The position numbers were made by a program, and so were the translations under genes. DNA of 64,000 nucleotides. Origin: Thermoplasmatota archaeon. Lineage in GTDB: Archaea > Thermoplasmatota > E2 > JACPAO01 > JAHFTW01. Positions 8,732 to 24,798 of the stretch are shown in pieces (within the stretch, counting starts at the first letter, position 1; each line of letters opens with the position of its first letter). Location: the NCBI GenBank assembly GCA_049602735.1, contig JBMYRW010000007.1, forward strand, positions 4,370 through 68,369, in the 5' to 3' direction. The notes below the pieces were generated by a model. The model worked only from the letters and a program-made list of their open reading frames with translations. It did not search any database and was not told the DNA's origin.

Positions 8732-9874
8732 ATGCAGTTCGAGCTGACCGACGACCAGCGCATGATCCGCGACATGGTGCGCGAGTTCGCCGAGAAGGAG
8801 ATCATGCCCGTGGCCTCCAAGCACGACCACGAGCACACCTTCCCTGAAGCGACCGCCAAGCGCATGGGCGAACTGGGCCTCCTGGGCATCACGGTGCCTG
8901 AACAGTACGGCGGCCCCGGAGCCGACTACATCAGTTTCGCCGTCGTCGCCGAAGAGATCGCACGCGCCTGTGCGAGCCATTCGGTCATCTTCGGCGCCTG
9001 CGCCAGTCTCACCGTGAGCCCCATCCTCAACTGGGGCAACGAGGAGCAGAAGCAGGAATGGCTGCCGAAGCTCGCCAGCGGCGGCGCCATGGGCTGCTAC
9101 GCCCTCACCGAGCCCACCGCGGGCAGCGACGCCGGCAGTCTCCTCACGAAGGCCACCCGCGACGGCGACGAATACGTCCTGAGCGGCCAGAAGGTCTACA
9201 TCTCCAACGGCGCCGTGGCCGATGTCTGCATCGCCTTCGCCCGCACCGACCCCGACTCCAAGGACGCCCGCGGCGTCTCGGCCTTCATCGTCCCCACGGA
9301 CACGGAAGGCTTCCGCGTCGGCAAGAACGAAGAGAAGATGGGCCTCAACGCCTCCTACACGAACCAGATCTTCTTCGAGGATGTCCGCATCCCTGCCGAG
9401 AACATCCTTGGCAAGGAAGGCGACGGCTTCAAGGTCGCCATGAGCACCCTTGACGTCGGCCGCATCATGGCCGCCAGCGGCTCCACCGGCATCGCCCGCG
9501 CCGCCATGGAGGACTCCATCGCCTACGCCAAGGAGCGCGTCCAGTTCGGCGTGCCCATCGCGTCCCATCAGGCGATCCAGTGGAAGCTGGCCAACATGGA
9601 CGTCAACATCGCCGCGGCGCGCCAGCTCTACCTGAAGGCCGCCTGGCTCAAGGACCAGGGCAAGCCGTTCACGGTGGAAGCCAGCCGCGCCAAGCTGTTC
9701 GCCAGTGAGATGGCCATGGATGCCACCCTGGATGGCGTGCAGATCCACGGCGGCAACGGCTACACCAAGGACTACAACGTGGAGCGCTACGTCCGCGACA
9801 TCAAGATCTTCGAGATCTTCGAAGGCACCAGCGAAGTACAGCGGATGGTCATCGCGCGTTCGCTGCTCTCCTGA
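8732..9874 (+). CDS. Acyl-CoA dehydrogenase (short/branched-chain type)
   Basis: MQFELTDDQRMIRDMVREFAEKE..., YALTEPTAGSD, and the C-terminal IFEGTSEVQRMVIAR signature. The start is placed at ATG 8732 rather than the track start at 8705. Confidence 0.9.
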   Translation: MQFELTDDQRMIRDMVREFAEKEIMPVASKHDHEHTFPEATAKRMGELGLLGITVPEQYGGPGADYISFAVVAEEIARACASHSVIFGACASLTVSPILNWGNEEQKQEWLPKLASGGAMGCYALTEPTAGSDAGSLLTKATRDGDEYVLSGQKVYISNGAVADVCIAFARTDPDSKDARGVSAFIVPTDTEGFRVGKNEEKMGLNASYTNQIFFEDVRIPAENILGKEGDGFKVAMSTLDVGRIMAASGSTGIARAAMEDSIAYAKERVQFGVPIASHQAIQWKLANMDVNIAAARQLYLKAAWLKDQGKPFTVEASRAKLFASEMAMDATLDGVQIHGGNGYTKDYNVERYVRDIKIFEIFEGTSEVQRMVIARSLLS

Positions 9875-9989
9875 GCGTGGCTGCCGCCAGCGGGACCAGG
9901 CCGCGCGTGGCCCTCTCGCCTTCCGTGGTGATGATGCGGTCTGGCATCACGCTGGTCACTCTGGCGTTGTTCTGGCCGGCATCTGGCTC

Positions 9990-10226: not shown

Positions 10227-10351
10227 TCGTGGCCTGGCGGCCCTCATCGCAGCCGCCATCGGGGGTGGTTGGCCCGGTGCCGGAGCCGGACCTCCAACAT
10301 GTTCATCTGGAATGGACAGGTCCATGGTCTGAGCTTCTGCTCGTGATGACC

Positions 10352-10609
10352 ATGAAACGCGTCACCCTCCTGGTTGCTGCCAGTCTTCTGACCGCCCTCC
10401 TTCTCGTTCCCGCCCCCGCGGCCGCCACCGCGCCCGTGACGGTCGAGCCCTGTCACGGCCCCAGTGGCTCCCAAAGCCATGGGGTCTACCTGAACGGGGT
10501 GCTCTTGGTTTGCGCGGCGCTCTTCACGTACGTCGGTGAATGTGAGGGCTTCCATGGCTCCGGCGTGGGGCTCTACGTCAACGGCCGCGAGGTCTTCTGC
10601 ATCCATTAG
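10352..10609 (+). CDS. Small secreted Cys-rich protein, family A paralog 1
   Basis: MKRVTLLVAASLLTALLLVPAPAAATA signal peptide. The mature part is about 58 aa with 4 Cys and a C-terminal GLYVNGREVFCIH. It shares the A-family pattern with the next two genes. Confidence 0.75.
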   Translation: MKRVTLLVAASLLTALLLVPAPAAATAPVTVEPCHGPSGSQSHGVYLNGVLLVCAALFTYVGECEGFHGSGVGLYVNGREVFCIH

Positions 10610-10618
10610 AGGTGGACC

Positions 10619-10870
10619 ATGAAGGCTCTCCTCTACGCGACGACGCTCGCCTGCGCCCTTCTGCTGCTACCTGCGGCCCCTACTTCGGCCGCTCCCCTGG
10701 AGGTCAAGGACTGTCCGGCGCCGCCGGGCATGTACGGGACCGGCGTCTATTGGCAAGGGTTCATGCTGGTCTGCGTGCCCTCGCCGGCCAAGGTCGACGA
10801 ATGCCGCGGCTTCCATGGTCCCGGCATCGGCCTGTACGCCAACGGCCGCGAGGTCTTCTGCATCCATTGA
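10619..10870 (+). CDS. Small secreted Cys-rich protein, family A paralog 2
   Basis: Signal peptide MKALLYATTLACALLLLPAAPTSAA and a mature part APLEVKDCPAPPG..GVYWQG..VC...ECRGFHGPGIGLYANGREVFCIH. GGTGG lies 3 nt upstream of the ATG, which is 9 nt after the previous stop. Confidence 0.8.
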   Translation: MKALLYATTLACALLLLPAAPTSAAPLEVKDCPAPPGMYGTGVYWQGFMLVCVPSPAKVDECRGFHGPGIGLYANGREVFCIH

Positions 10871-10877
10871 GGTGAAC

Positions 10878-11129
10878 ATGAAGGGACGAATCCTCGCCAC
10901 GTGCATGGCACTCTTCATCGTGGGTCTTGCCCCTGCAACCCATGCCTCTGCACCGGTGGAAGTCCGTGAATGTCCGGCCCCTCTGGGCTCGTATGGCATC
11001 GGCGTCTACTGGAACGGCAACCAGATGGCCTGCGTTCCGCTGGATGTCTATGTTCGCCAATGTGCCGGCCATCCCAGTGCTGGCTACGAACTGGTGGTGT
11101 TCGGTCGCGGCATGGGCTGCATCCACTGA
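10878..11129 (+). CDS. Small secreted Cys-rich protein, family A paralog 3
   Basis: MKGRILATCMALFIVGLAPATHASA signal peptide and a mature part APVEVRECPAPLG..GVYWNG..AC...QCAGH...GRGMGCIH. GGTGA lies 2 nt upstream of the ATG, which is 7 nt after the previous stop. Confidence 0.8.
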   Translation: MKGRILATCMALFIVGLAPATHASAPVEVRECPAPLGSYGIGVYWNGNQMACVPLDVYVRQCAGHPSAGYELVVFGRGMGCIH

Positions 11130-11135
11130 ACCGAG

Positions 11136-11168
11136 CCTCCTCGATGTCCCTCCTCCCCCTTCTGTTTT
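11136..11168 (+). terminator. CT-rich tract after the family A operon
   Basis: cctcctcgatgtccctcctcccccttctgtttt lies immediately downstream of the third paralog. Confidence 0.35.
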
Positions 11169-11192
11169 GAACGCCATCCGGCTCGCCGAGGC

Positions 11193-12182
11193 GTGCACGC
11201 CGGCGTACCCCTGGCCACCGAATCCCGCAGCGGTCGCATCGAGGCGGTCCATCAGGGTCACGCGGTCCTGTTGGCGCCGGATGGCACGGTGGCTGCATCG
11301 TGGGGCGACCCGGAGCTGGCGACGTACTGGCGTAGCAGCGCCAAGCCGATCCAGGTGCTCACGTTCCTCGCGGCCGGCGGCCCGGGCGCGATCGGGCTCC
11401 CGGACGATGAGGTGGTTGCCCTCGCCTGCGCCAGCCATTCGACGCAGCAGCGCCACCTGGACCTGAGCCGTCGTTTCCTTGCGGCGGCGGGGCTGGTGGA
11501 GGCCGACTACGGTTGCGGCGGCCACGAACCGATCGGGCCGGGCGGGGTCCCGGGCCCGTGGTCGGCGGTCCATAACAACTGCTCCGGCAAGCACGCGGCC
11601 ATGCTGGCGGCGTGTCGGTTGCGTGGATGGCCGACTGAAGGATACCTGGACCCGCACCACCCGATCCAGCAGGCCATCCTGGCCGACGTGGCACGTCTCA
11701 CCGGCCGCGACGCGGCGTCCATCGAGGTGGGCGTGGACGGTTGCCGGGCGCCGACGTTCTGGTTGTCGCCCTTGGACCTGGCGCGGGCGTTCCAGCGCCT
11801 CGACCAGGAGCCAGTCGGGCAGCGCGTCTTCGATGCCATGGCCCTGTGGCCGGTGCTGGTCGGCGGCGAGGGGCGTTTCTGCACGGCGTTGCCCCGCGCG
11901 ACCCGCGGTGATGTGGTGGGCAAGGTGGGGGCCATGGGGCTCTACGTCGCCCTCCACCGACCCACGGGAGCTGCGCTGGCGGTCAAGGTCACCTCCGGGC
12001 CCCGCATGCCGGTGCAGGAATCGGTGGCGTGCGCGCTGGCGGAGGCGGCGGGGTGGCTGGACGACGACGCACGCTCGGCGCTGGCACCGTTCCAGCGGCA
12101 GGTCCTGATGGATACGCGCGGCTGTCCAGTTGGGGAGCTGGAGCCATCGCTACCGGGCGGCAACCACGTTTCCGGGCCCTGA
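11193..12182 (+). CDS. Asparaginase II family (PF06089-like) protein
   Basis: SRSGRIEAVHQGHAVLLAPDG..., WRSSAKPIQ, CASHS, NNCSGKHAAML and GVDGC are motifs characteristic of the Rhizobium-type asparaginase II family. GTG start. Confidence 0.65.
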   Translation: MHAGVPLATESRSGRIEAVHQGHAVLLAPDGTVAASWGDPELATYWRSSAKPIQVLTFLAAGGPGAIGLPDDEVVALACASHSTQQRHLDLSRRFLAAAGLVEADYGCGGHEPIGPGGVPGPWSAVHNNCSGKHAAMLAACRLRGWPTEGYLDPHHPIQQAILADVARLTGRDAASIEVGVDGCRAPTFWLSPLDLARAFQRLDQEPVGQRVFDAMALWPVLVGGEGRFCTALPRATRGDVVGKVGAMGLYVALHRPTGAALAVKVTSGPRMPVQESVACALAEAAGWLDDDARSALAPFQRQVLMDTRGCPVGELEPSLPGGNHVSGP

Positions 12183-17833: not shown

Positions 17834-18318
17834 CCCGCGCGCCGGTGGTGGGCGTCATGGGTGGCGGGAAGGCTGCACCGGCGGTCACGCAGCTCGCCGA
17901 AGCACTAGGCGCCGCCGTCGCCCGCCGGGGCTGGTGGCTGCTGACGGGTGGCCGCGATGCCGGCGTCATGGCGGCGGCGACCCGAGGGGCCAAGCACGAG
18001 GGCGGCCGCGTGGTCGGCGTCCTTCCTGGTCGCCGGGGCGACGGCGGCGAGGCTCCGGGCCTGGACCTGGCGATCTACACCGGTATGGGGGATGCGCGCA
18101 ACGTGGTCAACGTGCTCTCCAGCGACGTCGTCCTGGCCCTGCCGGGCGGCGCGGGGACGCTCTCGGAGGTGGCGTTGGCGGTGAAGTCCGGCATCCCCGT
18201 GGCCCTTGTCGTGCCCGATGGCGCACCCGCATGGGCGGCCGAGCTTGGCGTGCCGTGCCTTCCCGACGTGGCTGGCGCCGTCGCGTGGGTCGACGAGCGG
18301 CTTCAGGCGAAGAGCTGA
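17830..18318 (+). CDS. TIGR00725/LOG-like Rossmann protein
   Basis: VGVMGGG...LLTGGRDAGVMAAATRGAKHEGGRVVGVLP...PGGAGTLSE is typical of the LOG / lysine-decarboxylase-like family. It overlaps the HAD stop (GTGA). Confidence 0.6.
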   Translation: MTRAPVVGVMGGGKAAPAVTQLAEALGAAVARRGWWLLTGGRDAGVMAAATRGAKHEGGRVVGVLPGRRGDGGEAPGLDLAIYTGMGDARNVVNVLSSDVVLALPGGAGTLSEVALAVKSGIPVALVVPDGAPAWAAELGVPCLPDVAGAVAWVDERLQAKS

Positions 18319-19436
18319 CGCGCGGCGGCCACATCGGCGGGTCGCTCGTTGGGGTCGTCGCGGCATAGGGCGCTCACGATCTTCTGGTCCTCCTCCGGTA
18401 CACCCGCGTCCTTCAGGGCTGCCAGGAGTTCGTCGTGTTCCCAGCCCCGCTGCGGCCGTTGGCCCATGCAGAGGAACGCGTACAGCCGGCCGAAATTGCA
18501 CAGGTCGCTGCGCACGGTGCCACGGGCACCAAGACCGTCGTCCTCCTTGCGCCGCATCTCAGGGGCGATGTACCCCGGCGTGCCGAGTGCCGCCCGACTG
18601 CGCACACAGCCATCCACAAGGGGTCGCGCGACGCCGACATCGATGACCTCCAAGTGGCCGTCGTCGCGGGCGATGAAGTTGCCCGGCGCCTGATCGAGGA
18701 GCAGGAAGCCCTGCTCGTGGCAGTGGCCAAGGATGTCGAGGATCTGCGTGGCCCAAGCGAGCCGCTTCGACCGGTCATCGGTCACGGGCGGGGCCGCCTT
18801 GTTGAGCGGCTCGCCGACGGCGTAGCTGCGCACCATGTGCAGAAGGCCGCGATGGGTGAAGCCGTCCACCAGGCGCGGGATGAGGGGATGGTCGAGGCGG
18901 CCCAGGATCGCCATCTCGATCGCCGTCGCCTTCTGGCCGGTGCGGATGGAGTTGAGGACGCCCCAGGCATGCTTGACGATCACTTCCTGCCCGGTCTGTC
19001 GGTCCTTGCACAGGTGGGCGATGCCCATGGAGCCACGCCCAATCTCCCGGATGCGCTCGTAGCGGCCGGCGAAGACCTCGGGCGGCTCCTCCAGGGGAAG
19101 CTCGAGGTAGCCCAGGTTGCGCAGGCGCCAGATGTACTTCCGGGCGAGCTTGCGCTTGTCGCGGCTGCGCAGGATGCGCTCTGTGGGGTAGTCCGGCATC
19201 GCTTTGCCCATCTCTTCCAGCGTGGCGCCTTGGGCCAGGCCATCGATGACGTCGAGGCAACTGGCGTGGACGCGTTGCCAGGTGTCCGAGCCGTCCCAGT
19301 AGACCTCGCCCCAGGAAGGTTCGCCTTCGAGGCGGCGCGTCGGGGGGAGGCGGTCGATCACGGGCGGCGGGAAGAAGCGCTCCGGCTCCTCCACGTCGGG
19401 GACCTCCAGGCCGAGTTGCTCCGTCAGGCTGCGCAC
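18303..19436 (-). CDS. Ser/Thr protein kinase with N-terminal PqqD(RRE)-like winged-helix region
   Basis: Kinase motifs: Gly-loop IGRGSMG, VIVKH Lys, catalytic LLLDQAPGN (non-RD), DVG (DFG-like) and APE. Residues ~43-112 (EVYWDGSDTWQRVHASCLDVIDGLAQGATLEEMGKAM...KLARKYIWRLRNLGYLEL) follow the PqqD-like pattern. The GTG start overlaps the pmbA stop by 13 nt. Confidence 0.75.
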   Translation of the reverse strand: MRSLTEQLGLEVPDVEEPERFFPPPVIDRLPPTRRLEGEPSWGEVYWDGSDTWQRVHASCLDVIDGLAQGATLEEMGKAMPDYPTERILRSRDKRKLARKYIWRLRNLGYLELPLEEPPEVFAGRYERIREIGRGSMGIAHLCKDRQTGQEVIVKHAWGVLNSIRTGQKATAIEMAILGRLDHPLIPRLVDGFTHRGLLHMVRSYAVGEPLNKAAPPVTDDRSKRLAWATQILDILGHCHEQGFLLLDQAPGNFIARDDGHLEVIDVGVARPLVDGCVRSRAALGTPGYIAPEMRRKEDDGLGARGTVRSDLCNFGRLYAFLCMGQRPQRGWEHDELLAALKDAGVPEEDQKIVSALCRDDPNERPADVAAARQLFA

Positions 19437-20767
19437 GACACCCCTCCCCCCGAGAGCGCCGTGAAGGTTCCGCTTCGCGCCTCCACCTGTTCGCGCCCCA
19501 CGCCGTGCAGGTCCCGCATCAGGTCGTGGACGTTGCCGCCGATCGTCGTATGGGGCAGCGCGTGGACCACTTCGCCCTTCTCGATGAGGAAGCCGAACGG
19601 TGCCACGACGCTGAAGTCGCCCGTCGTCCGGTTGCTGCTGAAGAAGCCGGCCAGAGGATCGGTGACCAGGACGGCGCGGTCTTCGGCCGCGATGAGCTCC
19701 TCCAGGCTCTTGTCGCCACCACCCACCACGGGATGGACGGGTGCCACGCCGACGCCGCTGCTCCAGCCGCCGGCGCGCAGGCCCCGGCCGTTGCTGCCGG
19801 TCCCCGCTGCGGCCCCAGACCGGGTGTCATGGAGCACGTTCCGCAGGAGGCCATCCGTGACGAGGTCCAACGGATCGCACGGTGTCCCTTCATGGTCGAA
19901 CCGCCGGACGCGGTGGCCAGCGGGGGCGTCGCGGATGTCCAGAAGCGGCGAAGCCACCTGTTCGCCCAAGCGCCCCGCGAAGGGGCCCTTGCCCGTCTCG
20001 ACGAGCCGCCCGGAAAGGGGGTGGAGGAACATGGAGACGAACTGGCCGGCCGCTTGAGGTGCCAGCACCACGTCCGTGACGGGGCGACCAAGGGGTTTGT
20101 GCTGGAGGGCATCTGCGGTGCGACGGGCCAGGGCGCCACCCACGCGTTCGATCTCCGACATCTGGAGTCCTTCGCGGGCGGCCAGCAGGTCCATGCCGGT
20201 CCGCTGGGCCTGCGTGCCCACCTCGCCGGCGCGCGTGTCCAGCAGCATCCATTCCAAGGACGTCTCGTCCCACGCCTGGTGCCCCGTGTCGTTGGCGACC
20301 GCGAAGCGACTGCGGCTGGAGGCGACCGTGACCGCCCGGTAGGTGCAGGCCTCCTGGTCAAGCGCCGCCATCGCCGCCGCGCCAAGCGCCTCCAAGCGCG
20401 CTGGGTCAGGGTCCCGGAACACTTCCGGCGTCGCCGAGGGCGTGTCACTCGACCTTGTGGCCGGTGCGGCGAAGCCGGCAAACGCCACATCCACCGGGGC
20501 CTGACGGGCGGCCAGGCACGCCTCATCCACCAGTTCCGCGATGCGGCCGGAGCCAGAACTGGACGCCTGGCCGGGCCGGCCGTCCACCACGACGCGCAGG
20601 GCCATCCCCAGGCTGTGGCTTGCCTTCGGCGCCGTGAAGCCCTCCCGGCACACCCAGTTGAGCGACCGCCCCTCCTGGATGAACGCCTCGGCGTGGTCGG
20701 CGCCCGCGGCCAGCGCCCCCTCGACGCTCCGTTCGGCGTGGTCCTGCAGCTCTTCGATGGGCCTCAT
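19424..20767 (-). CDS. pmbA: PmbA/TldE metalloprotease partner subunit
   Basis: TldD/PmbA family fold with no HExxxH motif. The start MRPIEELQDHAERSVE at 20767 gives an ATGA overlap with the tldD stop, so the track N-terminal extension to 20857 is rejected. Confidence 0.8.
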   Translation of the reverse strand: MRPIEELQDHAERSVEGALAAGADHAEAFIQEGRSLNWVCREGFTAPKASHSLGMALRVVVDGRPGQASSSGSGRIAELVDEACLAARQAPVDVAFAGFAAPATRSSDTPSATPEVFRDPDPARLEALGAAAMAALDQEACTYRAVTVASSRSRFAVANDTGHQAWDETSLEWMLLDTRAGEVGTQAQRTGMDLLAAREGLQMSEIERVGGALARRTADALQHKPLGRPVTDVVLAPQAAGQFVSMFLHPLSGRLVETGKGPFAGRLGEQVASPLLDIRDAPAGHRVRRFDHEGTPCDPLDLVTDGLLRNVLHDTRSGAAAGTGSNGRGLRAGGWSSGVGVAPVHPVVGGGDKSLEELIAAEDRAVLVTDPLAGFFSSNRTTGDFSVVAPFGFLIEKGEVVHALPHTTIGGNVHDLMRDLHGVGREQVEARSGTFTALSGGGVSCAA

Positions 20768-22185
20768 GCCACCTGCCCACCGACCAGGGCCTCCGAGACG
20801 AGGACCTGCGGGCCGCCCGTGCCCACGTGGATGAGCGACTGGTCCCATTTGCCACATCCACCGAAGAACGTGGTGCGCAACCGGAAGTCGTCGGTGATCG
20901 CTTCGATGTTGCCGAAGAAGTCGAGGATGTTGCCGTTGATGGTGGCCATCTTGATGGGGTGGGACAATTCGCCGTCCTCCACCCAGTAGCCGCCTTCGGA
21001 CGTGAACGTGAAGGAGCCGTCGGAGCGGGGCGCCCCGCCGCGTCCCCCTTGCAGGTAGACGCCGGTGCCCAGGGCCTCCAGTGCCTCCTCTTGGCTGTGG
21101 TCGCCGGGCTCCATGAACGTGTTGCGCATGCGGACGATGGGCGCGTGGCTGACGTTGAGCGCCCTGGCGCTCCCCGTGGCCGCCACGTCCTGGTCGGAAG
21201 CCGAGTCCCGGCCGTGCAGGTACGCCGTCAGGGCGCCTTGGTCCACCAGGGTCACGTCGCGGCCCGGCGTCCCCTCCTGGTCGAACGGCACCACCACGCC
21301 ATGCTTGACCGGCCCAGGCATCCGTGGCACATCCCGGATCGTCACGTCACGGGGGGCCAGTCGTTCACCCAGCCGGTCCTGGAGGACGCTCCAGCCGGGG
21401 GCGACCACGTCGTACTCCGTCAAATGGCCGAAGCTCTCGTGCACCATGATGCCGGTGAGCTTGTTGTCGCAGAGGGTCCGGTAGCGGCCGGCCGTGATAG
21501 GCTTCGCCTCCAGGTCGACCTTCGCGGCGCGCCCGGCCGCCCTGCCGAGCGCCTCGGGGCCCCCTTCGTCCTCGTAGTCGCCGAAGCCCAGCTCGCCGCC
21601 GCGCCATTCGTTGCCGCTGCCATGGCGCGCACCATCACGGGCGAGCGTCTGGACGAGCAATGTGGAGAGCAGGTTCTCGGAGACCACGTGGCCTCCCGTC
21701 GAGTTGGCCACGACGGTCAGACCGCGCCGGGCACCGAAGCCCACCTGGGCCACCTGCCCAGGGACCTCTTCAAGCGCCGCCTCCTCCGCGCGCCGAAGCA
21801 GCCCGTAGGCCGCTTCGTCGGGGACGTCGTGGGGGTGTTCGCGGACATCTGGTGTGTGACGCCCCTTGTGGTCATGGAGGTCAGGAGCAAAGCCGTCCCA
21901 TCCCTGCCTGGCGTTCGCCTGGGCCAAGCGGCCGGCCTGGTCGACCAGGTCCCGGAGCGCATGGTGGGTCAGTTCGTTCGTGTAAGCGTACGCCGACGCG
22001 GCGCCCTCGAAGGCGCGGATGCCGATGCCGCCCACGTGGCTACGCCCCGCCGATCGGAGTTGGCCGTTGCGCAGCACCCATCGCCGGTCCTCTTGGATGT
22101 CGAGCCGTACCTCGAAGGCGGAGAGTCGTTGCTGCGCCAGTTCGACGGCTCGCTCGGTCCAGGATTCAGCGTCAGTGGGCTCCAC
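20764..22185 (-). CDS. tldD: TldD metalloprotease
   Basis: HExxxH-type motif GIMVHESFGHLTE. The start is set at GTG 22185 (VEPTDAESWTERAVELAQ), which has AAGGAG upstream. The track extension to 22404 has no homology-like content. Confidence 0.8.
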   Translation of the reverse strand: MEPTDAESWTERAVELAQQRLSAFEVRLDIQEDRRWVLRNGQLRSAGRSHVGGIGIRAFEGAASAYAYTNELTHHALRDLVDQAGRLAQANARQGWDGFAPDLHDHKGRHTPDVREHPHDVPDEAAYGLLRRAEEAALEEVPGQVAQVGFGARRGLTVVANSTGGHVVSENLLSTLLVQTLARDGARHGSGNEWRGGELGFGDYEDEGGPEALGRAAGRAAKVDLEAKPITAGRYRTLCDNKLTGIMVHESFGHLTEYDVVAPGWSVLQDRLGERLAPRDVTIRDVPRMPGPVKHGVVVPFDQEGTPGRDVTLVDQGALTAYLHGRDSASDQDVAATGSARALNVSHAPIVRMRNTFMEPGDHSQEEALEALGTGVYLQGGRGGAPRSDGSFTFTSEGGYWVEDGELSHPIKMATINGNILDFFGNIEAITDDFRLRTTFFGGCGKWDQSLIHVGTGGPQVLVSEALVGGQVA

Positions 22186-22203
22186 GGCAGGCTCCTTGGA
22201 ACG

Positions 22204-22270
22204 GAAGGTTGTGGGTTCAAAAGTGGGGGGTAGAGAGAGGGTAGAGGGAAAGTTTGGGGTCAAAACGGCA
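22204..22270 (-). terminator. CT-rich tract with T-runs downstream of the 36-aa ORF
   Basis: On the minus strand it reads ccgttttgaccccaaactttccctctaccctctctctaccccccacttttgaaccc, lying between the small ORF stop and the tldD start. Confidence 0.4.
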
Positions 22271-22282
22271 ACGTGCCGAGGC

Positions 22283-22393
22283 TTAGATAGCCTCGTCAGC
22301 GGTGGTACCGTTCGTGTCGTCCGCGCCCGTGGAGGCACCGGACGTGTCCAGGTCACCCAGCTCGGGCAGTTCGGGGATGTCGACCAGCAGCAT
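22283..22393 (-). CDS. Unannotated 36-aa acidic Ser/Thr-rich peptide (candidate precursor peptide)
   Basis: MLLVDIPELPELGDLDTSGASTGADDTNGTTADEAI. AAGGAGGTGA ends 7 nt upstream of the ATG. About 30 of 36 codons end in G/C. It has its own AT-rich upstream region and a CT-rich tract downstream. The peptide has 9 acidic and 0 basic residues. Confidence 0.6.
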   Translation of the reverse strand: MLLVDIPELPELGDLDTSGASTGADDTNGTTADEAI

Positions 22394-22470
22394 TTGTTGT
22401 TCACCTCCTTGAGGAGTTCCGGGGGCAGCAGCCAGCTGCTCCCGCGGCAAACCGGACCATTGCCCTACAG

Positions 22471-22479
22471 TAGATAAAG
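22471..22479 (-). promoter_or_regulatory. TATA-like element upstream of the 36-aa ORF
   Basis: On the minus strand it reads ctttatcta, about 80 nt upstream of the ATG, in the only AT-rich stretch between the ABC stop and the peptide ORF. Confidence 0.35.
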
Positions 22480-22509
22480 AGTCTCAAGCGTTACCGGTTT
22501 ATCGAACTT

Positions 22510-22525
22510 TGAACAATCCTGTTCA
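22510..22525. promoter_or_regulatory. Inverted repeat TGAACA-N4-TGTTCA upstream of the TATA-like element
   Basis: tgaacaatcctgttca has perfect 6-nt arms and lies about 30 nt upstream (sense orientation) of the TATA-like element. Confidence 0.4.
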
Positions 22526-22565
22526 TTGGAAACAAGTCCGTGGGGAGAGGAGCCGGCGAGGGGGC

Positions 22566-24668
22566 TCATGCAGCGCCTGCCTGGACCGTCTCCTGACGGA
22601 ACGCCACCGGCGTCGCACCCTGTTCGTGCAGCCACCCATCGAGCCGCTCTAGGTTGTCCACGGGGTCCTCCAGCAGGATGTGCAGGGCCCGGCCCCTTCC
22701 GGTGGCCGCCTTGACGCCGGGCGCCGCGCGGAGAGCAGCCACCAGGCCGGCCAGGGGTTTGGCGAGGGTGACGTGGATCCAATCCGCTTCGGTGTCGACA
22801 TCCGCTGGTTCTGGTTCGGCCGCCGTCGCATCATGCCCGAGGTCCTGCAGGCGGACGTAGCGGGCGTAGGCGCCGCCCTTGGCCAACAGGGCAGCGTGGC
22901 GCCCCTGTTCCACGATGCGCCCCTTCTCCAGGACGACGATCATGTCGGCGTCGCGGACGGTGGAGAGCCGGTGGGCGACGGCGACCACGGTGCGGTCGCG
23001 GCTCACACGGTCGATCGCTTCCTGCACGAGCCGCTCGGTGGCCGTGTCGAGGGCGCTGGTCGCCTCGTCGAGGATGAGCAGGTCAGGGTCGGCCAGGATG
23101 GCGCGGGCGATGGCGAGGCGCTGGGCCTGCCCGCCGGACAAACGGACGCCGCGGTCGCCGATGACCGTGTCGTAGCCGTCAGGGAGCTCCTGGATGAAGG
23201 CGTGGGCGTTGGCCTGCTTGGCCGCCTCCATCACTTGGGCGTCCGTGGCCTCCGGGTTGCCGAAGCGCAGGTTGTCCGCCACGGAGGCGTGGAAGAGGAA
23301 GGTGTCCTGGGAGACCACGGCGACGCGGCGACGCCAGTCCTTGATGCGGAAGCGTCGCAGGTCGGTGCCGTCCACGGTGACGCGCCCTTCGGTGGGGTCG
23401 AAGAGGCGGGTGAGCAGGTCGATGATCGTGGACTTGCCGGCGCCGCTGCCGCCTACCAGGGCGACCTTCTGACCCTTGTTGATGGTGAGGTCGATGCCGT
23501 CGAGGACCGCCGGTTCGTCCGCCTCGTAGTGGAACCGGATGCCCTCCAGTCGCACGGCCTGCCGGAGCCCAGGGAACGCCTGGTCGCCGTCGGCGAGGTA
23601 GCTCTTGTCCTTCCGTTCCATGAAGTGGACGATCGCTTCCAGGTACGGCAGCTCCGATTCCAGCGTGGCCCGCAGGCGGGCATAGTCGCCGCTACGGCTG
23701 AGCAGGGGAAGCAGCAGCACGCTGAAGAGACCCAGGATGACGAGCCAGTCCCCGTCGGAGCGGTCCAGCAGCAACGTGGCACCCACCAGCACCGTGGCCA
23801 CGAGGGCGTTGCTGGCGATGAGGTACAAAGCAGGCACAAGGGCGCTGATGCGGGCGCGGCGGAACTGGTCCCGCTGCATCTGCGTCAGTTCACCCATGAA
23901 CCGCGTCCGGGCCTCCTCTTCGCGGCCGAACTGATGGATGAGCTTCATGCCCTGCAGGGACTCCAGGCTGACCTGGTGGAGGCGCAGGCGGCTTTCGCGG
24001 ATGCGGTGGCTGAGCGCCCGGATGAACACCTGCAATTTGCCGAGGCTCAGGTTGACGATGATCGCCAGTCCCACGGCCAACAGGGTGAGCTGCCAGCTCG
24101 TGAGCGCCATGGTGACAAAGACCGCCAGGAAGCTCGTGGAGGTGCGTACGGCGTTGAGCAGCTCGTTGACGATGCGGGTGGAATGGCTGGGGAACGAGTG
24201 CATCAACGTGAACAGGTTCGCCTGCTTCTCCTTGTTGATGAAGCGCTGCTCCACGCCCACCACGTCATCGAAGACCATGGCGCGCAGGTCGCGGCCCACC
24301 TGGATGCGGATGAGGTGGGCGACGCGGCCGTACCCGTAGCTGACGGCGGCCTTCAGGAGCGCGATCGCGAAGAACAGGAGCGCCACCAATTGCACCCGCT
24401 CCACCACGGTGAGGCCTTCGAAGAGGGGCAGCAACGCGGCGATGGGGGTGTCCTGCGCGAGGCTGCCGTCGCTGCCGCGCAACGTGGCCAAGAGCGGCAC
24501 GAACACCATGAAGTTGGCCACCTCGAGGGCGGTCAACAGGAGGATCAACGCGAAGGCGGCCGCCAAGAGTAGAGGGTGGCGCAGCACCACCCGCATCAGG
24601 AAACCAAGGCTCTGGCGACGGGGCAGCGGCTGATCGGTTCCCATGTGTTCTTCGCGGACCTTCTTCAT
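22566..24668 (-). CDS. ABC exporter (fused TMD-NBD, MsbA-like) with ~90-aa C-terminal extra domain
   Basis: Six-TM ABC membrane domain, Walker A GGSGAGKST, signature LSGGQAQR and Walker B LLILDEATSALD. An extra C-terminal WIHVTLAKPLAGLVAALRAAPGVKAATGRGRALHILLEDPVDNLERLDGWLHEQGATPVAFRQ follows. The start is uncertain (ATG 24668 or 24644; the track start at 24722 overlaps the gcvT upstream region). Confidence 0.85.
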   Translation of the reverse strand: MKKVREEHMGTDQPLPRRQSLGFLMRVVLRHPLLLAAAFALILLLTALEVANFMVFVPLLATLRGSDGSLAQDTPIAALLPLFEGLTVVERVQLVALLFFAIALLKAAVSYGYGRVAHLIRIQVGRDLRAMVFDDVVGVEQRFINKEKQANLFTLMHSFPSHSTRIVNELLNAVRTSTSFLAVFVTMALTSWQLTLLAVGLAIIVNLSLGKLQVFIRALSHRIRESRLRLHQVSLESLQGMKLIHQFGREEEARTRFMGELTQMQRDQFRRARISALVPALYLIASNALVATVLVGATLLLDRSDGDWLVILGLFSVLLLPLLSRSGDYARLRATLESELPYLEAIVHFMERKDKSYLADGDQAFPGLRQAVRLEGIRFHYEADEPAVLDGIDLTINKGQKVALVGGSGAGKSTIIDLLTRLFDPTEGRVTVDGTDLRRFRIKDWRRRVAVVSQDTFLFHASVADNLRFGNPEATDAQVMEAAKQANAHAFIQELPDGYDTVIGDRGVRLSGGQAQRLAIARAILADPDLLILDEATSALDTATERLVQEAIDRVSRDRTVVAVAHRLSTVRDADMIVVLEKGRIVEQGRHAALLAKGGAYARYVRLQDLGHDATAAEPEPADVDTEADWIHVTLAKPLAGLVAALRAAPGVKAATGRGRALHILLEDPVDNLERLDGWLHEQGATPVAFRQETVQAGAA

Positions 24669-24798
24669 GTCGCCGACGGGCGTACGGGGTGCCGTTGATA
24701 GGTGTTGGCGGGGCGGTACCATCGAGGACGGTACACCGCGCCCGACCGGCCTCGCCGGTCGCCCTAGCCTTGAAAGCCGCCGCCGCGTCCGCCGCCGC

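Follow-up and report, generated by a model that had tools for sequence, protein, structure and literature searches.

RREs are the main handle for the genome mining of new peptide natural products, and, to our knowledge, very few RiPP pathways are known in archaea. The systems for linear polyphosphorylated peptides (LPP) of Bacillota combine an RRE, a kinase, a leader peptidase and an MsbA-like pump to make linear phosphopeptides (PMC13381572). In the case of phospeptin from 'Ca. Eudoremicrobium', co-expression of EmbM with EmbA was reported to give a phosphorylated peptide (PMC9259500). A structural paper from 2023 described the class II-V lanthipeptide enzymes as having no identifiable RRE (PMC10604976), and TldD-type proteases were found to occur within RiPP clusters (PMC12257519). 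Here, we analysed a stretch of 64,000 nucleotides from a Thermoplasmatota archaeon (hereafter, the window), which encodes a Ser/Thr kinase that is preceded by a PqqD-like N-terminal domain (N-domain). The most likely product of the cluster around this gene is a phosphorylated peptide that is secreted, for which there are as yet no biochemical or expression data.

The gene for the RRE-kinase fusion (18303..19436, minus strand, stop codon included), as defined by its ORF and translation, has a GTG start and encodes 377 aa. The original prediction had marked a PqqD-like region at 19101-19310, and codon mapping showed that this segment encodes exactly residues 43-112. The peptide quoted for it, EVYWDG...GYLEL, matches these coordinates because the codon of residue 43 lies at 19310-19308 and that of residue 112 at 19103-19101 on the minus strand of the window. 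The gene is the K1 paralogue, i.e., the copy directly after TldE, and the K1 clade had a support of 98/94. Its N-terminal extension (residues 1-24; 19365..19436, minus strand) carries the K1-specific motif E-x-P-x-x-E-x-P-x-R-F-F-P, which is kept among the K1 homologues; in the full-length AlphaFold2 model, the extension forms short helices at 4-7 and 18-21, and the block-mean pLDDT values for residues 1-30 were 85, 95 and 97. A Pro-rich linker (residues 114-119; 19080..19097, minus strand) joins the RRE to the N-lobe of the kinase. The stretch P-L-E-E-P-P-E-V-F covers residues 114-122 and runs on to R125, with residues 120-122 falling inside the kinase part (18306-19079); among 66 family representatives, P119 was kept in 59, F122 in 44 and R125 in 62. 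The full-length model (pLDDT 95.7, pTM 0.91) indicates that the RRE and the kinase, connected by this conserved linker, would form one rigid unit, their predicted mutual arrangement being considered fixed because of the pTM of the whole protein.

According to AlphaFold2, Foldseek, profile searches and hhalign, the PqqD-like RRE spans residues ~31-113 (19098..19346, minus strand). The presence of a PqqD-like region was therefore borne out, but its limits had been drawn too narrowly at 43-112, as strand 1 already lies at 33-35. The further elements that were assigned by DSSP in the AlphaFold2 model were two strands (42-47, 52-57), three helices (58-68, 73-79, 91-107) and a short strand at 111-112; the N-domain modelled alone reached a pLDDT of 90.9. 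We observed the PqqD topology in the models, that is, a three-stranded antiparallel sheet followed by three helices. A Foldseek search with the model against the PDB, which had been proposed as a check, ranked the lasso RREs TbiB1 (5v1v/5v1u) and TfuB1 (6jx3) first, followed by LynD, CteB, TigE, ThcOx and SuiB, all of which are RRE-bearing RiPP enzymes. TbiB1 in complex with its leader (5v1v) was matched with an E-value of 0.01, a probability of 1.00 and a target TM of 0.66, and TfuB1 (6jx3) also had a probability of 1.00. RREs or RRE-bearing RiPP enzymes made up 10 of the 11 best PDB matches, and the structural similarity to solved RREs that is expected of an RRE was found. The Foldseek E-values for the N-domain were only ~0.01. 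The list also contained two methyltransferases whose RRE content was not checked, 8hkr in fourth place and 5do0 in places 14 and 23; the winged-helix DNA-binding domains 5ju7 and 1pdn appeared low in it.

With a cut-off as permissive as E <= 10, the Pfam PqqD model (PF05402) matched neither the window domain nor a single one of the 18 N-domains of the family, and the NCBIfam models also left the window domain and these 18 N-domains unmatched. The family-scan matches that did appear for the N-domains at E <= 10 (Ubiquitin_4 and RovC_DNA-bd) were rejected as noise. A family profile was built from the 18 N-domains and searched against 1.84 billion proteins, which gave 99 matches, ~85 of which had the N-domain before a kinase in proteins of 320-405 aa. 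All nine of the non-kinase matches that were checked were Pfam PqqD proteins, including one lasso B protein; the Pfam-verified PqqD proteins were reached at E-values of 3e-6 to 1e-3, and no small proteins other than PqqD were present among the checked matches from this library. When the profile was compared with the PDB sequences, the best single-stretch match was TbiB1 (E 0.011), which was colinear over 70/91 residues. hhalign of the N-domain against PqqD gave a probability of 97.4% and an E-value of 1e-11, with a comparison set that was drawn from the profile's own matches. Similarity to accepted PqqD members was thus observed at the profile level, and the resemblance is well beyond chance. 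Of the PqqD pattern that had been read into the sequence, the overall resemblance stood and the placement of the Gly did not: in the profile-profile alignment, it is G70 (AQG), and not D65-G66, that falls on the invariant PqqD Gly. An unrelated fold with no similarity to PqqD, which would have refuted the original prediction, was not seen, the fold and the profile searches both pointing to PqqD. The evidence supports the N-domain as a true but divergent RRE of the PqqD superfamily (PF05402, IPR008792) that can be recognised only by profile and structure. Its helix 3 has a net charge of +8 in the window protein and is net positive in 92% of the family members. A word-indexed homologue search with the full protein returned one close relative (42% identity), the others being generic kinases that matched the kinase half. 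A match from Patescibacteria (L056) without the N-domain was dropped from the family.

The remaining part of the protein (residues 120-377; 18306..19079, minus strand) is a Hanks-type Ser/Thr kinase domain of the non-RD kind with all of the catalytic residues present, in which Pfam Pkinase (PF00069) covers residues 126-366 (E 5e-22). The motifs that had been listed for it earlier (Gly-loop, VxK Lys, D..P.N, DxG and APE) were found again in the translation: the Gly-loop GRGSMG at residues 133-138, VIVK with K155, the catalytic loop FLLLDQAPGNF with D248 and N253, DVG with D266 and APE at 291-293, along with E174 as the alphaC Glu. Residues G133-G138, K155, E174, D248, N253, D266, E293 and R365 were conserved in at least 90% of the 66 representatives. 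The set of Hanks-kinase motifs is complete from the Gly-loop to the subdomain XI Arg, and the kinase does not belong to the RD class because LLD stands where HRD would be. The earlier non-RD assignment extends to the whole set of 66 representatives, in which this position reads L-[LFCY]-L-D (L-L-L-D in the window). Judging by its residues, the domain is catalytically intact, i.e., a predicted active Hanks kinase, although there is no biochemistry. In Foldseek, its best match was PknB (1mru, E 1e-14), and the nearest solved structures were those of PknB and the CaMK kinases. The best NCBIfam match of the window protein was the kinase part of LanL (E 2e-27), in which only positions 183-451 of 851 were matched with 95.9 bits against a cut-off of 650. 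Specific kinship with LanL was rejected as a family trait, as the PknB, MAD6 and LanL models scored about equally across the 66 members; because of this lack of a specific affinity to RiPP kinases, a protein substrate cannot be excluded.

The cluster comprises an ABC exporter, a gene for a peptide of 28-36 aa, TldD, TldE and one to three RRE-kinases, and the kinase gene sits after TldE wherever the contigs allow. The start of the kinase gene and the stop of TldE overlap by 13 nt in all three of the loci that were checked (the window, L012 and L029). The TldE/PmbA subunit (19424..20857, minus strand) matched Pfam PmbA_TldD_3rd with an E-value of 7e-48. The TldD subunit (20764..22185, minus strand), which was identified by its HExxxH motif (HESFGH), all three PmbA_TldD Pfam domains and synteny, likely starts with the GTG at 22185, after AAGGAG. 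Further upstream lies a 36-codon candidate precursor (22283..22393, minus strand), MLLVDIPELPELGDLDTSGASTGADDTNGTTADEAI, with a conserved leader-like N-half and a C-half rich in Ser/Thr/Asp; AAGGAGGTGA is located 6 nt upstream of its ATG. Four further genomes have small ORFs homologous to it upstream of the cluster, preceded by the same ribosome-binding site and present as two tandem copies in one of these genomes, and every genome whose upstream region is on the contig (5/5) had a small ORF with a GGAGGTGA ribosome-binding site. Searching the loci for the LGDLD motif as DNA recovered only one homologue, and the distant peptides were obtained by scanning for ORFs and ribosome-binding sites. 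The peptide sequences known so far, of which there are only five, are 28-36 aa long with 5-8 Ser/Thr and a net charge of -5 to -9; none of them contains Cys, Lys or Arg, and the variable half is Ser/Thr-rich in all five. The leader consensus is M-M-L-x-D-L-P-x-L-x-x-L-G-D-L-D, in which P7 and L/V9 are invariant and resemble xxPx[L/V] within the leader motif of lasso peptides that is bound by the B1 RREs (PMC13381572). An AT-richer spacer (22394..22565, minus strand) with a TATA-like ctttatcta is the probable promoter for peptide-TldD-TldE-kinase, which is an inference from sequence reading only. It is flanked by an MsbA-like ABC exporter (22566..24722, minus strand; Pfam ABC_membrane and ABC_tran; exact start uncertain), which has fused membrane and ATPase domains and an extra C-terminal domain of ~100 aa. 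A homologous exporter adjoins the kinases in L029, L030, L031 and L032.

TldD-TldE-kinase(s) together with the ABC transporter were observed in at least eight genomes from several Thermoplasmatota families, and the distribution of the cluster within Thermoplasmatota is sporadic (11/401 genomes). Most of the contigs in this comparison were short metagenome fragments. More than one TldD/E pair was present in 5/32 genomes of the same family, and these five include all three known carriers of the cluster; each of the three has its extra pair on the same contig as the cluster. The cluster TldD/E is a dedicated second pair that was found only in the carrier genomes, beside their housekeeping pair. 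The HAD hydrolase and SLOG genes were rejected as cluster members and are regarded as conserved flanks because they are also found in a relative that lacks the cluster, which keeps both the HAD-SLOG and the GcvT-TrkA flanks. In one genome (G191), the kinase persists beside only a TldE remnant, and for this reason the kinase may also act without the full cluster. The locus has the make-up of a generic RiPP cluster, i.e., a short precursor gene with a conserved leader and a variable core, an RRE enzyme, a protease and an exporter that are conserved across genomes.

We consider it reasonably likely that the protein is a leader-guided peptide kinase in a pathway of RRE docking, core phosphorylation, leader removal by TldD/E and ABC export. 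It is inferred that the RRE would bind the conserved N-terminal leader of the 28-36-aa peptide and that the leader would slot in between strand 3 and helix 3, which is strongly basic, to form an additional strand, for which there is no complex model. Docking would bring the C-terminal core, which is rich in Ser/Thr/Asp, to the kinase for phosphorylation of one or more Ser/Thr; this modification of the peptide is likewise only inferred. The TldD/TldE of the cluster would then cut off the leader, this step being an inference, as is the order of the steps, and the adjacent ABC exporter would secrete a short, very acidic, linear phosphopeptide, with both the export and the modified product remaining inferred. 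The adjoining leader-like peptide and the basic helix 3 opposite an acidic peptide provide indirect support for leader binding. It is also possible, although we propose it only tentatively, that the cluster represents a new archaea-specific RiPP class, i.e., linear, multiply phosphorylated acidic peptides made by RRE-fused Hanks kinases, in which K1-K3 are sub-functionalised and TldD/E trims to the first phospho-residue. The paralogues K1, K2 and K3, each with its own RRE, would then perhaps each write a different site, and, as a result of the trimming, phosphorylation would both decorate the product and set its N-terminus.

A generic Hanks kinase domain that is closest to PknB would also suit a peptide-sensing signalling kinase, i.e., a cytoplasmic peptide-responsive regulatory module. 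The RRE would then bind the peptide as a ligand and not as a substrate, binding would activate or inactivate the kinase, and other proteins (TldD/E, the ABC exporter or unrelated ones) would be phosphorylated. Being non-RD, the kinase may be controlled by means other than activation-loop phosphorylation, the rigid packing of the RRE and the kinase (pTM 0.91) would suit allosteric control, and G191 retains the kinase without an intact protease. We nevertheless find such a role unlikely: the Ser/Thr-rich variable half in all five peptides is substrate-like, maturation and secretion account better than signalling for a dedicated protease and exporter, and all of the experimentally characterised RRE-enzyme fusions known to us act on the peptide that they bind (PMC10604976). 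It appears quite unlikely that, as in the class III/IV lanthipeptides, phosphorylation is merely an intermediate, with phospho-Ser/Thr turned into dehydroamino acids spontaneously or by a lyase encoded elsewhere and a dehydrated peptide as the product. In RiPPs, Hanks-like kinases are known for phosphorylation followed by elimination (PMC10604976), and the window kinase scores best against the LanL kinase part (E 2e-27), but this affinity is not family-wide among the 66 members, and a lyase or cyclase gene was absent from all of the clusters examined. Moreover, the Cys-containing core of the class III/IV lanthipeptides is missing from the five peptides, and lanthionine cannot form because they have no Cys, while stable linear phosphopeptide RiPPs are known (PMC9259500, PMC13381572).

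The failure of the curated PqqD models to detect the N-domain, together with the methyltransferases 8hkr and 5do0 in its Foldseek list and 5ju7 and 1pdn low down in it, could be taken to mean that it is a generic winged-helix module for contacts with DNA or protein, for which the small-ORF neighbourhood would be meaningless. This is very unlikely in our opinion; the strand-first order, with three strands and then three helices, is that of PqqD and not of a classical winged helix, the top structural and sequence matches are RREs, and the N-domain always occurs with the kinase and, where the contigs are long enough, with the set of peptide, protease and exporter. A role in anti-phage defence as a stand-alone Ser/Thr kinase of the PD-T4-6 or MAD6 kind within a variable genomic island is hardly credible. 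The cluster is indeed accessory, inserted at a variable site and only sporadically distributed, and the PADLOC PD-T4-6 and mad6 models match the kinase domain with E-values down to 5e-23, but these matches do not reach beyond the generic kinase fold, no defence model in PADLOC is matched by TldD, TldE or the peptide, and the PD-T4-6 and MAD6 systems have no place for an RRE, a precursor-like peptide or an exporter. Membership in a defence system was rejected, as the PADLOC matches were confined to the generic kinase and ABC ATPase folds.

The RRE-kinase fusion was suspected from the outset to be an undescribed architecture, and we came across no account of a Hanks kinase with a fused RRE, nor of any pathway in which a phosphopeptide is made by an RRE-fused Hanks kinase with TldD/E. 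If the reading as a leader-guided peptide kinase is true, this is the first case known to us in which a eukaryotic-like kinase is recruited to a peptide by an RRE. The RRE solution would then also have been applied to a eukaryotic-like protein kinase, in archaea, whereas the Hanks kinases of RiPPs, LanKC and LanL, are notable for lacking an RRE. RRE-based mining probably overlooks the N-domain because the Pfam PqqD and NCBIfam models miss it; the 18-sequence profile recovers ~85 representative fusion proteins. A 36-aa peptide, a 377-aa enzyme and a protease pair offer a test system for a docking domain that gives a generic kinase single-substrate specificity. A secreted polyphosphorylated acidic peptide, should this be the product, might, speculatively, bind metals or minerals or inhibit proteases. 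Phospeptin reportedly inhibits proteases.

Among the known systems, the best structural and sequence matches of the N-domain are TbiB1 and TfuB1 (5v1v, 6jx3), whose fold and order of strands and helices are identical to its own. However, these are discrete proteins of ~90 aa that pass the leader on to a protease and a cyclase, whereas the N-domain is covalently joined to a kinase, and the identity is only ~15%. EmbM of phospeptin is said to be a LanM-type (lipid-kinase-fold) enzyme with a kinase unrelated to the Hanks type. Phospeptin (PMC9259500) shares with the proposed archaeal system a linear, stably phosphorylated RiPP and a single kinase-type maturase; its host is bacterial. In the case of TldD/TldE of microcin B17 and of PbsP/BpmI (PMC6395948, PMC12257519), the shared feature is a TldD-family HExxxH metalloprotease that removes the leader of a RiPP, as is inferred for the archaeal cluster. 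Microcin B17 of E. coli borrows the housekeeping TldD/E and PbsP works alone without TldE (PMC6395948, PMC12257519), whereas the archaeal cluster has a complete second TldD and TldE pair of its own.

LanKC and LanL (PMC10604976) also use a leader-dependent, non-RD Ser/Thr kinase fold that phosphorylates a ribosomal precursor. They contain lyase and cyclase domains and lack an RRE, and it is to the kinase and lyase domains that their leader binds, in the form of a helix (PMC10604976). In contrast, the archaeal fusion has an RRE and lacks a lyase, a cyclase and a peptide Cys; the lyase and cyclase domains that LanKC/LanL would require were not found in the 377-aa protein using Pfam. The logic of the LPP systems and of the paeninodin-type phosphorylated lasso peptides (LppK/PadeK with the discrete RRE LppB/B1; PMC13381572) would be shared in that the RRE reads the leader and the kinase phosphorylates a Ser of the core, and they also have in common with the archaeal cluster a dedicated peptidase, which removes the leader in these systems, an MsbA-like ABC pump and, as inferred for the archaeal cluster, a linear phosphopeptide as the product. 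Moreover, the structural neighbours of the N-domain are lasso B1 RREs, and the archaeal leader keeps a P-x-L/V element like that of the lasso motif. The kinase of LPP/paeninodin is, however, HprK-like (P-loop), a requirement that the archaeal protein with its Pkinase fold does not meet, the Hanks type having an unrelated fold. The RRE is a separate protein in LPP/paeninodin and is fused to the kinase in the archaeal protein, and the peptidase is SpI-like or B2 in the former and a TldD/TldE heterodimer in the latter. The hosts are bacteria on the one hand and Thermoplasmatota archaea on the other, whose cluster has no nucleotidyltransferase. The archaeal system is an analogue, and not a member, of the LPP/paeninodin type.

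The open reading frame of the RRE-kinase (18303..19436, minus strand; 377 aa, GTG start) contains the stretch marked in the original prediction, 19101-19310, as residues 43-112, and these match the quoted peptide exactly. Its N-terminal domain (N-domain) gave nothing relevant in Pfam or NCBIfam, either as residues 1-126 at E <= 10 or when 17 homologous N-domains were scanned singly. In the AlphaFold2 model of residues 1-125 (pLDDT 90.9, pTM 0.78), strands are found at residues 33-35, 42-46 and 53-57 and helices at 58-68, 73-79 and 91-107, and a full-length model based on 66 sequences repeated this fold (pLDDT 95.7, pTM 0.91). The strand-first order is that of PqqD/RRE domains, whereas a classical winged helix is helix-first. 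Foldseek, which had been proposed for such a model, was run on residues 1-125 against the PDB and ranked lasso-peptide RREs at the top: TbiB1 with its leader (5v1v, 5v1u; E 0.01, probability 1.00, target TM 0.66), next TfuB1 (6jx3_B), and then LynD, CteB, TigE, ThcOx and SuiB, which are all RRE-bearing RiPP enzymes. The E-values were modest, yet the match list consisted almost purely of RREs. For the profile of alignment A4, which comprises 18 N-domains gathered from related genomes, the best single-stretch match among PDB sequences was also TbiB1 (E 0.011), and the alignment was colinear (profile positions 26-97 against chain residues 16-85 of 91). An exhaustive HMMER search of 1.84 billion representative proteins with the same profile (E <= 1e-3) returned 99 matches, about 85 of which were 320-405 aa long and carried the domain N-terminally. 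Nine of the remaining approximately 12 (92-248 aa, E 3e-6 to 1e-3) were checked, and all nine were Pfam PqqD proteins; eight were above the PF05402 cut-off (E 5e-10 to 7e-28), P0171 was below it (18.3 bits, cut-off 23.4), and one of the nine also has a lasso B2 transglutaminase-like domain. The 97.4% probability that hhalign gave for A4 against five of these PqqD proteins is inflated because the proteins compared had been picked out of the matches of that same profile. Since the fold, the Foldseek ranking, the PDB profile match and the exhaustive search agree on an RRE, the unrelated fold that would have refuted a PqqD-like region was not encountered. We consider it highly probable that the N-domain has a PqqD-type RRE fold, and we place the protein in the PqqD/RRE superfamily as a divergent member that is fused to a Hanks kinase. 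Apart from this, five proteins of 899-2734 aa (P0144, P0155, P0157, P0160 and P0168) showed 4-8 repeated partial matches to the N-domain profile, of 30-50 positions each, which could be helical sub-motif repeats, and P0074 (676 aa; exhaustive search) has a kinase, a second RRE and a second kinase in a single chain, which reflects either tandem paralogues that have truly fused or gene calls that were merged.

The kinase half is an ordinary Hanks kinase (Pkinase domain at residues 126-366, E 5e-22 in the Pfam scan), and every motif named in the original prediction was found in it: the Gly-loop GRGSMG (residues 133-138), the VIVK lysine K155 with E174, the catalytic loop FLLLDQAPGNF with D248 and N253, DVG with D266, and APE at 291-293. 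It is also non-RD, as had been stated, because the position of the HRD arginine is occupied by leucine. Across 66 family representatives, conservation of the catalytic residues was 90% or higher, and L-x-L-D occupied the HRD position in all 66; judged by these residues, and without biochemistry on activity, the family is predicted to comprise active, uniformly non-RD kinases. In a structure search, the closest solved structures were PknB and CaMK-type kinases (approximately 260-350 aligned columns among the 50 matches listed, about 270 for the closest), and none of the 50 matches listed paired a kinase with such an RRE domain. The best NCBIfam match was the kinase segment of the class IV lanthionine synthetase LanL (E 2e-27). 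Special kinship with lanthipeptide kinases is not claimed; the scores of the PknB, MAD6 and LanL models are about the same across the family.

On the minus strand, the kinase gene is preceded, in this order, by an ABC exporter (22566-24722), an AT-richer spacer of 172 nt, a 36-codon ORF (22283-22393), TldD with a HESFGH motif (20764-22185) and TldE/PmbA (19424-20857). Between the GTG start of the kinase and the TldE stop there is a 13-nt overlap (19424-19436), and the identical overlap was found at the related loci L012 (1348-1360) and L029 (3802-3814), i.e., in three genomes and two families in all, which suggests that translation of the kinase is coupled to that of the protease subunit. Where contigs were long enough, TldD, TldE and a transporter of the MsbA-like or ABC-2 type recurred as neighbours, with one to three RRE-kinases in tandem. 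Hel308 and Cgi121 genes, found nearby in the Pfam scan, mark the organism as archaeal. The exporter has an extra C-terminal domain of about 100 aa after its ATPase (22566-22860), in place of which the exporter tail in genome G128 (L031 2-300) carries a CPSC...CPRC zinc-ribbon-like motif.

The 36-codon ORF encodes MLLVDIPELPELGDLDTSGASTGADDTNGTTADEAI, with a ribosome-binding site, AAGGAGGTGA, 6 nt ahead of its ATG. Homologues with the same ribosome-binding site head the cluster in four other genomes (MMLIDLPTLDGLGDLDGTDASDSTGDPTETG, MMLGNLPSLPAIGDLDSDGASDTTGDEA, MMLGNLPTLPALGDLDSDGNTTTTGDEA and, in two tandem copies, MMTIDIPTVDEALNLDGTSGSAETGATETA), and the ORF was present in all five genomes whose contigs extend over the upstream region. 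P7 and L/V9 are invariant in the conserved N-halves of the peptides. The C-halves vary but in every case lack Cys, Lys and Arg, bear 5-8 Ser/Thr and have a net charge of -5 to -9; from sequence alone, a leader followed by a core, as in a precursor peptide, is the predicted anatomy. In solved RREs, the leader groove is lined by helix 3; in the RRE-kinase family, this helix carries a net positive charge in 92% of the members, and its charge is +8 in the window protein. Lasso B1 RREs read the leader motif [Y/W]xxPx[L/V/I...] (PMC13381572), which the P-x-L/V element of the peptides recalls, a resemblance and not a test. At locus L027 (G082:C99), two tandem peptide genes with identical products (9828-9920 and 10270-10362), each with its own GGAGGTGA, lie upstream of the kinase paralogue K1 in the order peptide-peptide-kinase-TldD-TldE, unlike in the window.

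The N-domain profile was found in 11 of the 401 Thermoplasmatota genomes searched, and all matches lay within kinase-size ORFs, bar two marginal ones (E about 0.006). At least one TldD/PmbA match occurred in each of the 32 same-family genomes, nearly all with one full pair, and more than one pair in five: the cluster carriers G000, G253 and G310, as well as G408 and G409, which belong to the genus of G310 and were not checked for the kinase. Two full pairs, the second more divergent, were present in G000, G253, G310 and G408, and in all three confirmed carriers the second pair was on the cluster contig. The TldD/TldE of the cluster is an extra copy dedicated to it, and the cluster itself is an accessory insertion. 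A relative without the cluster (G143:C1) retains the HAD-SLOG and GcvT-TrkA flanks, which enclose unrelated small Cys-rich secreted ORFs; the insertion site seems to act as a hotspot of variable genes for secreted peptides. At L064 7847-8868, syntenic with window 18303-24722, at least two small ORFs that encode a signal peptide and several Cys lie in the SLOG-GcvT gap. In a tree of 19 kinases, the window kinase was placed inside the supported K1 clade (98/94), whose members directly follow TldE wherever the contig covers the upstream region (in G191, only a TldE remnant); the extra copies of the tandem arrays group in the other clade, and the window's genome has K1 only. In G191 (L026, contig C25), an 86-aa ORF at 10494-10754 is the C-terminal end of TldE/PmbA and the sole remainder of the protease genes, directly downstream of which the intact RRE-kinase (10742-11848) adjoins an unrelated ORF that resembles, by look only and without a domain scan, an aminoacyl-tRNA synthetase. 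This looks like a decaying cluster whose kinase has outlived its partners.

All of this evidence comes from metagenome-assembled sequence, and there are no biochemical, complex-model or expression data. With its observed fold and homology, the RRE would dock the peptide leader, a binding that is inferred; the fused kinase, whose catalytic site is intact, would phosphorylate Ser/Thr of the peptide core, which is an inferred substrate; and the dedicated TldD/TldE pair would then cut off the leader. The ABC pump of the conserved cluster, with its conserved peptide gene, would export a short acidic linear phosphopeptide, although the export and the order of the steps are likewise only inferred. 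We regard the whole chain, from leader docking through core phosphorylation and leader removal to export, as reasonably probable. The protein might instead be a signalling kinase that senses a peptide, which is possible but unlikely. Slightly less likely still, phosphorylation could be a prelude to dehydration, but the clusters are without a lyase or cyclase and the peptides without Cys. It is very improbable that the N-domain is merely a winged helix of the generic kind, without any part in handling a peptide, and a defence kinase is the least credible reading, as its PADLOC matches were to generic folds only.

In the literature searched, no architecture that joins an RRE or PqqD domain to a protein kinase domain was described, in line with the original prediction, in which such a fusion was not recognised from known architectures, and nothing describing such an architecture was found for RiPP kinases in Thermoplasmatota. 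To our knowledge, LanKC and LanL are the kinases of Hanks fold that act on RiPPs. They work without an RRE, because class II-V lanthipeptide enzymes "contain no identifiable RRE"; in ThurKC, the leader is bound as a helix by the kinase and lyase domains (PMC10604976). RRE-guided peptide phosphorylation is already known with an HprK-like kinase and a discrete RRE, in paeninodin-type lasso peptides and in the linear polyphosphorylated peptides (LPP) of Bacillota, whose systems also employ a leader peptidase and an MsbA-like pump (PMC13381572). What is new here is a different kinase fold (Hanks, unrelated to HprK-like), an RRE that is covalently fused rather than discrete, a dedicated TldD/E pair rather than that leader peptidase, and an archaeal host rather than Bacillota. 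EmbM of the phospeptin system is reportedly a LanM-type kinase. Co-expression of EmbM and EmbA yielded phospeptin, a linear diphosphopeptide (PMC9259500). TldD-type proteases are found inside other RiPP clusters (PbsP, BpmI; PMC12257519), and microcin B17 is matured by TldD/E, as cited there (cf. PMC6395948). The window protein is a member of neither the lanthipeptide synthetase family nor the LPP family; by analogy, its system probably works like LPP.
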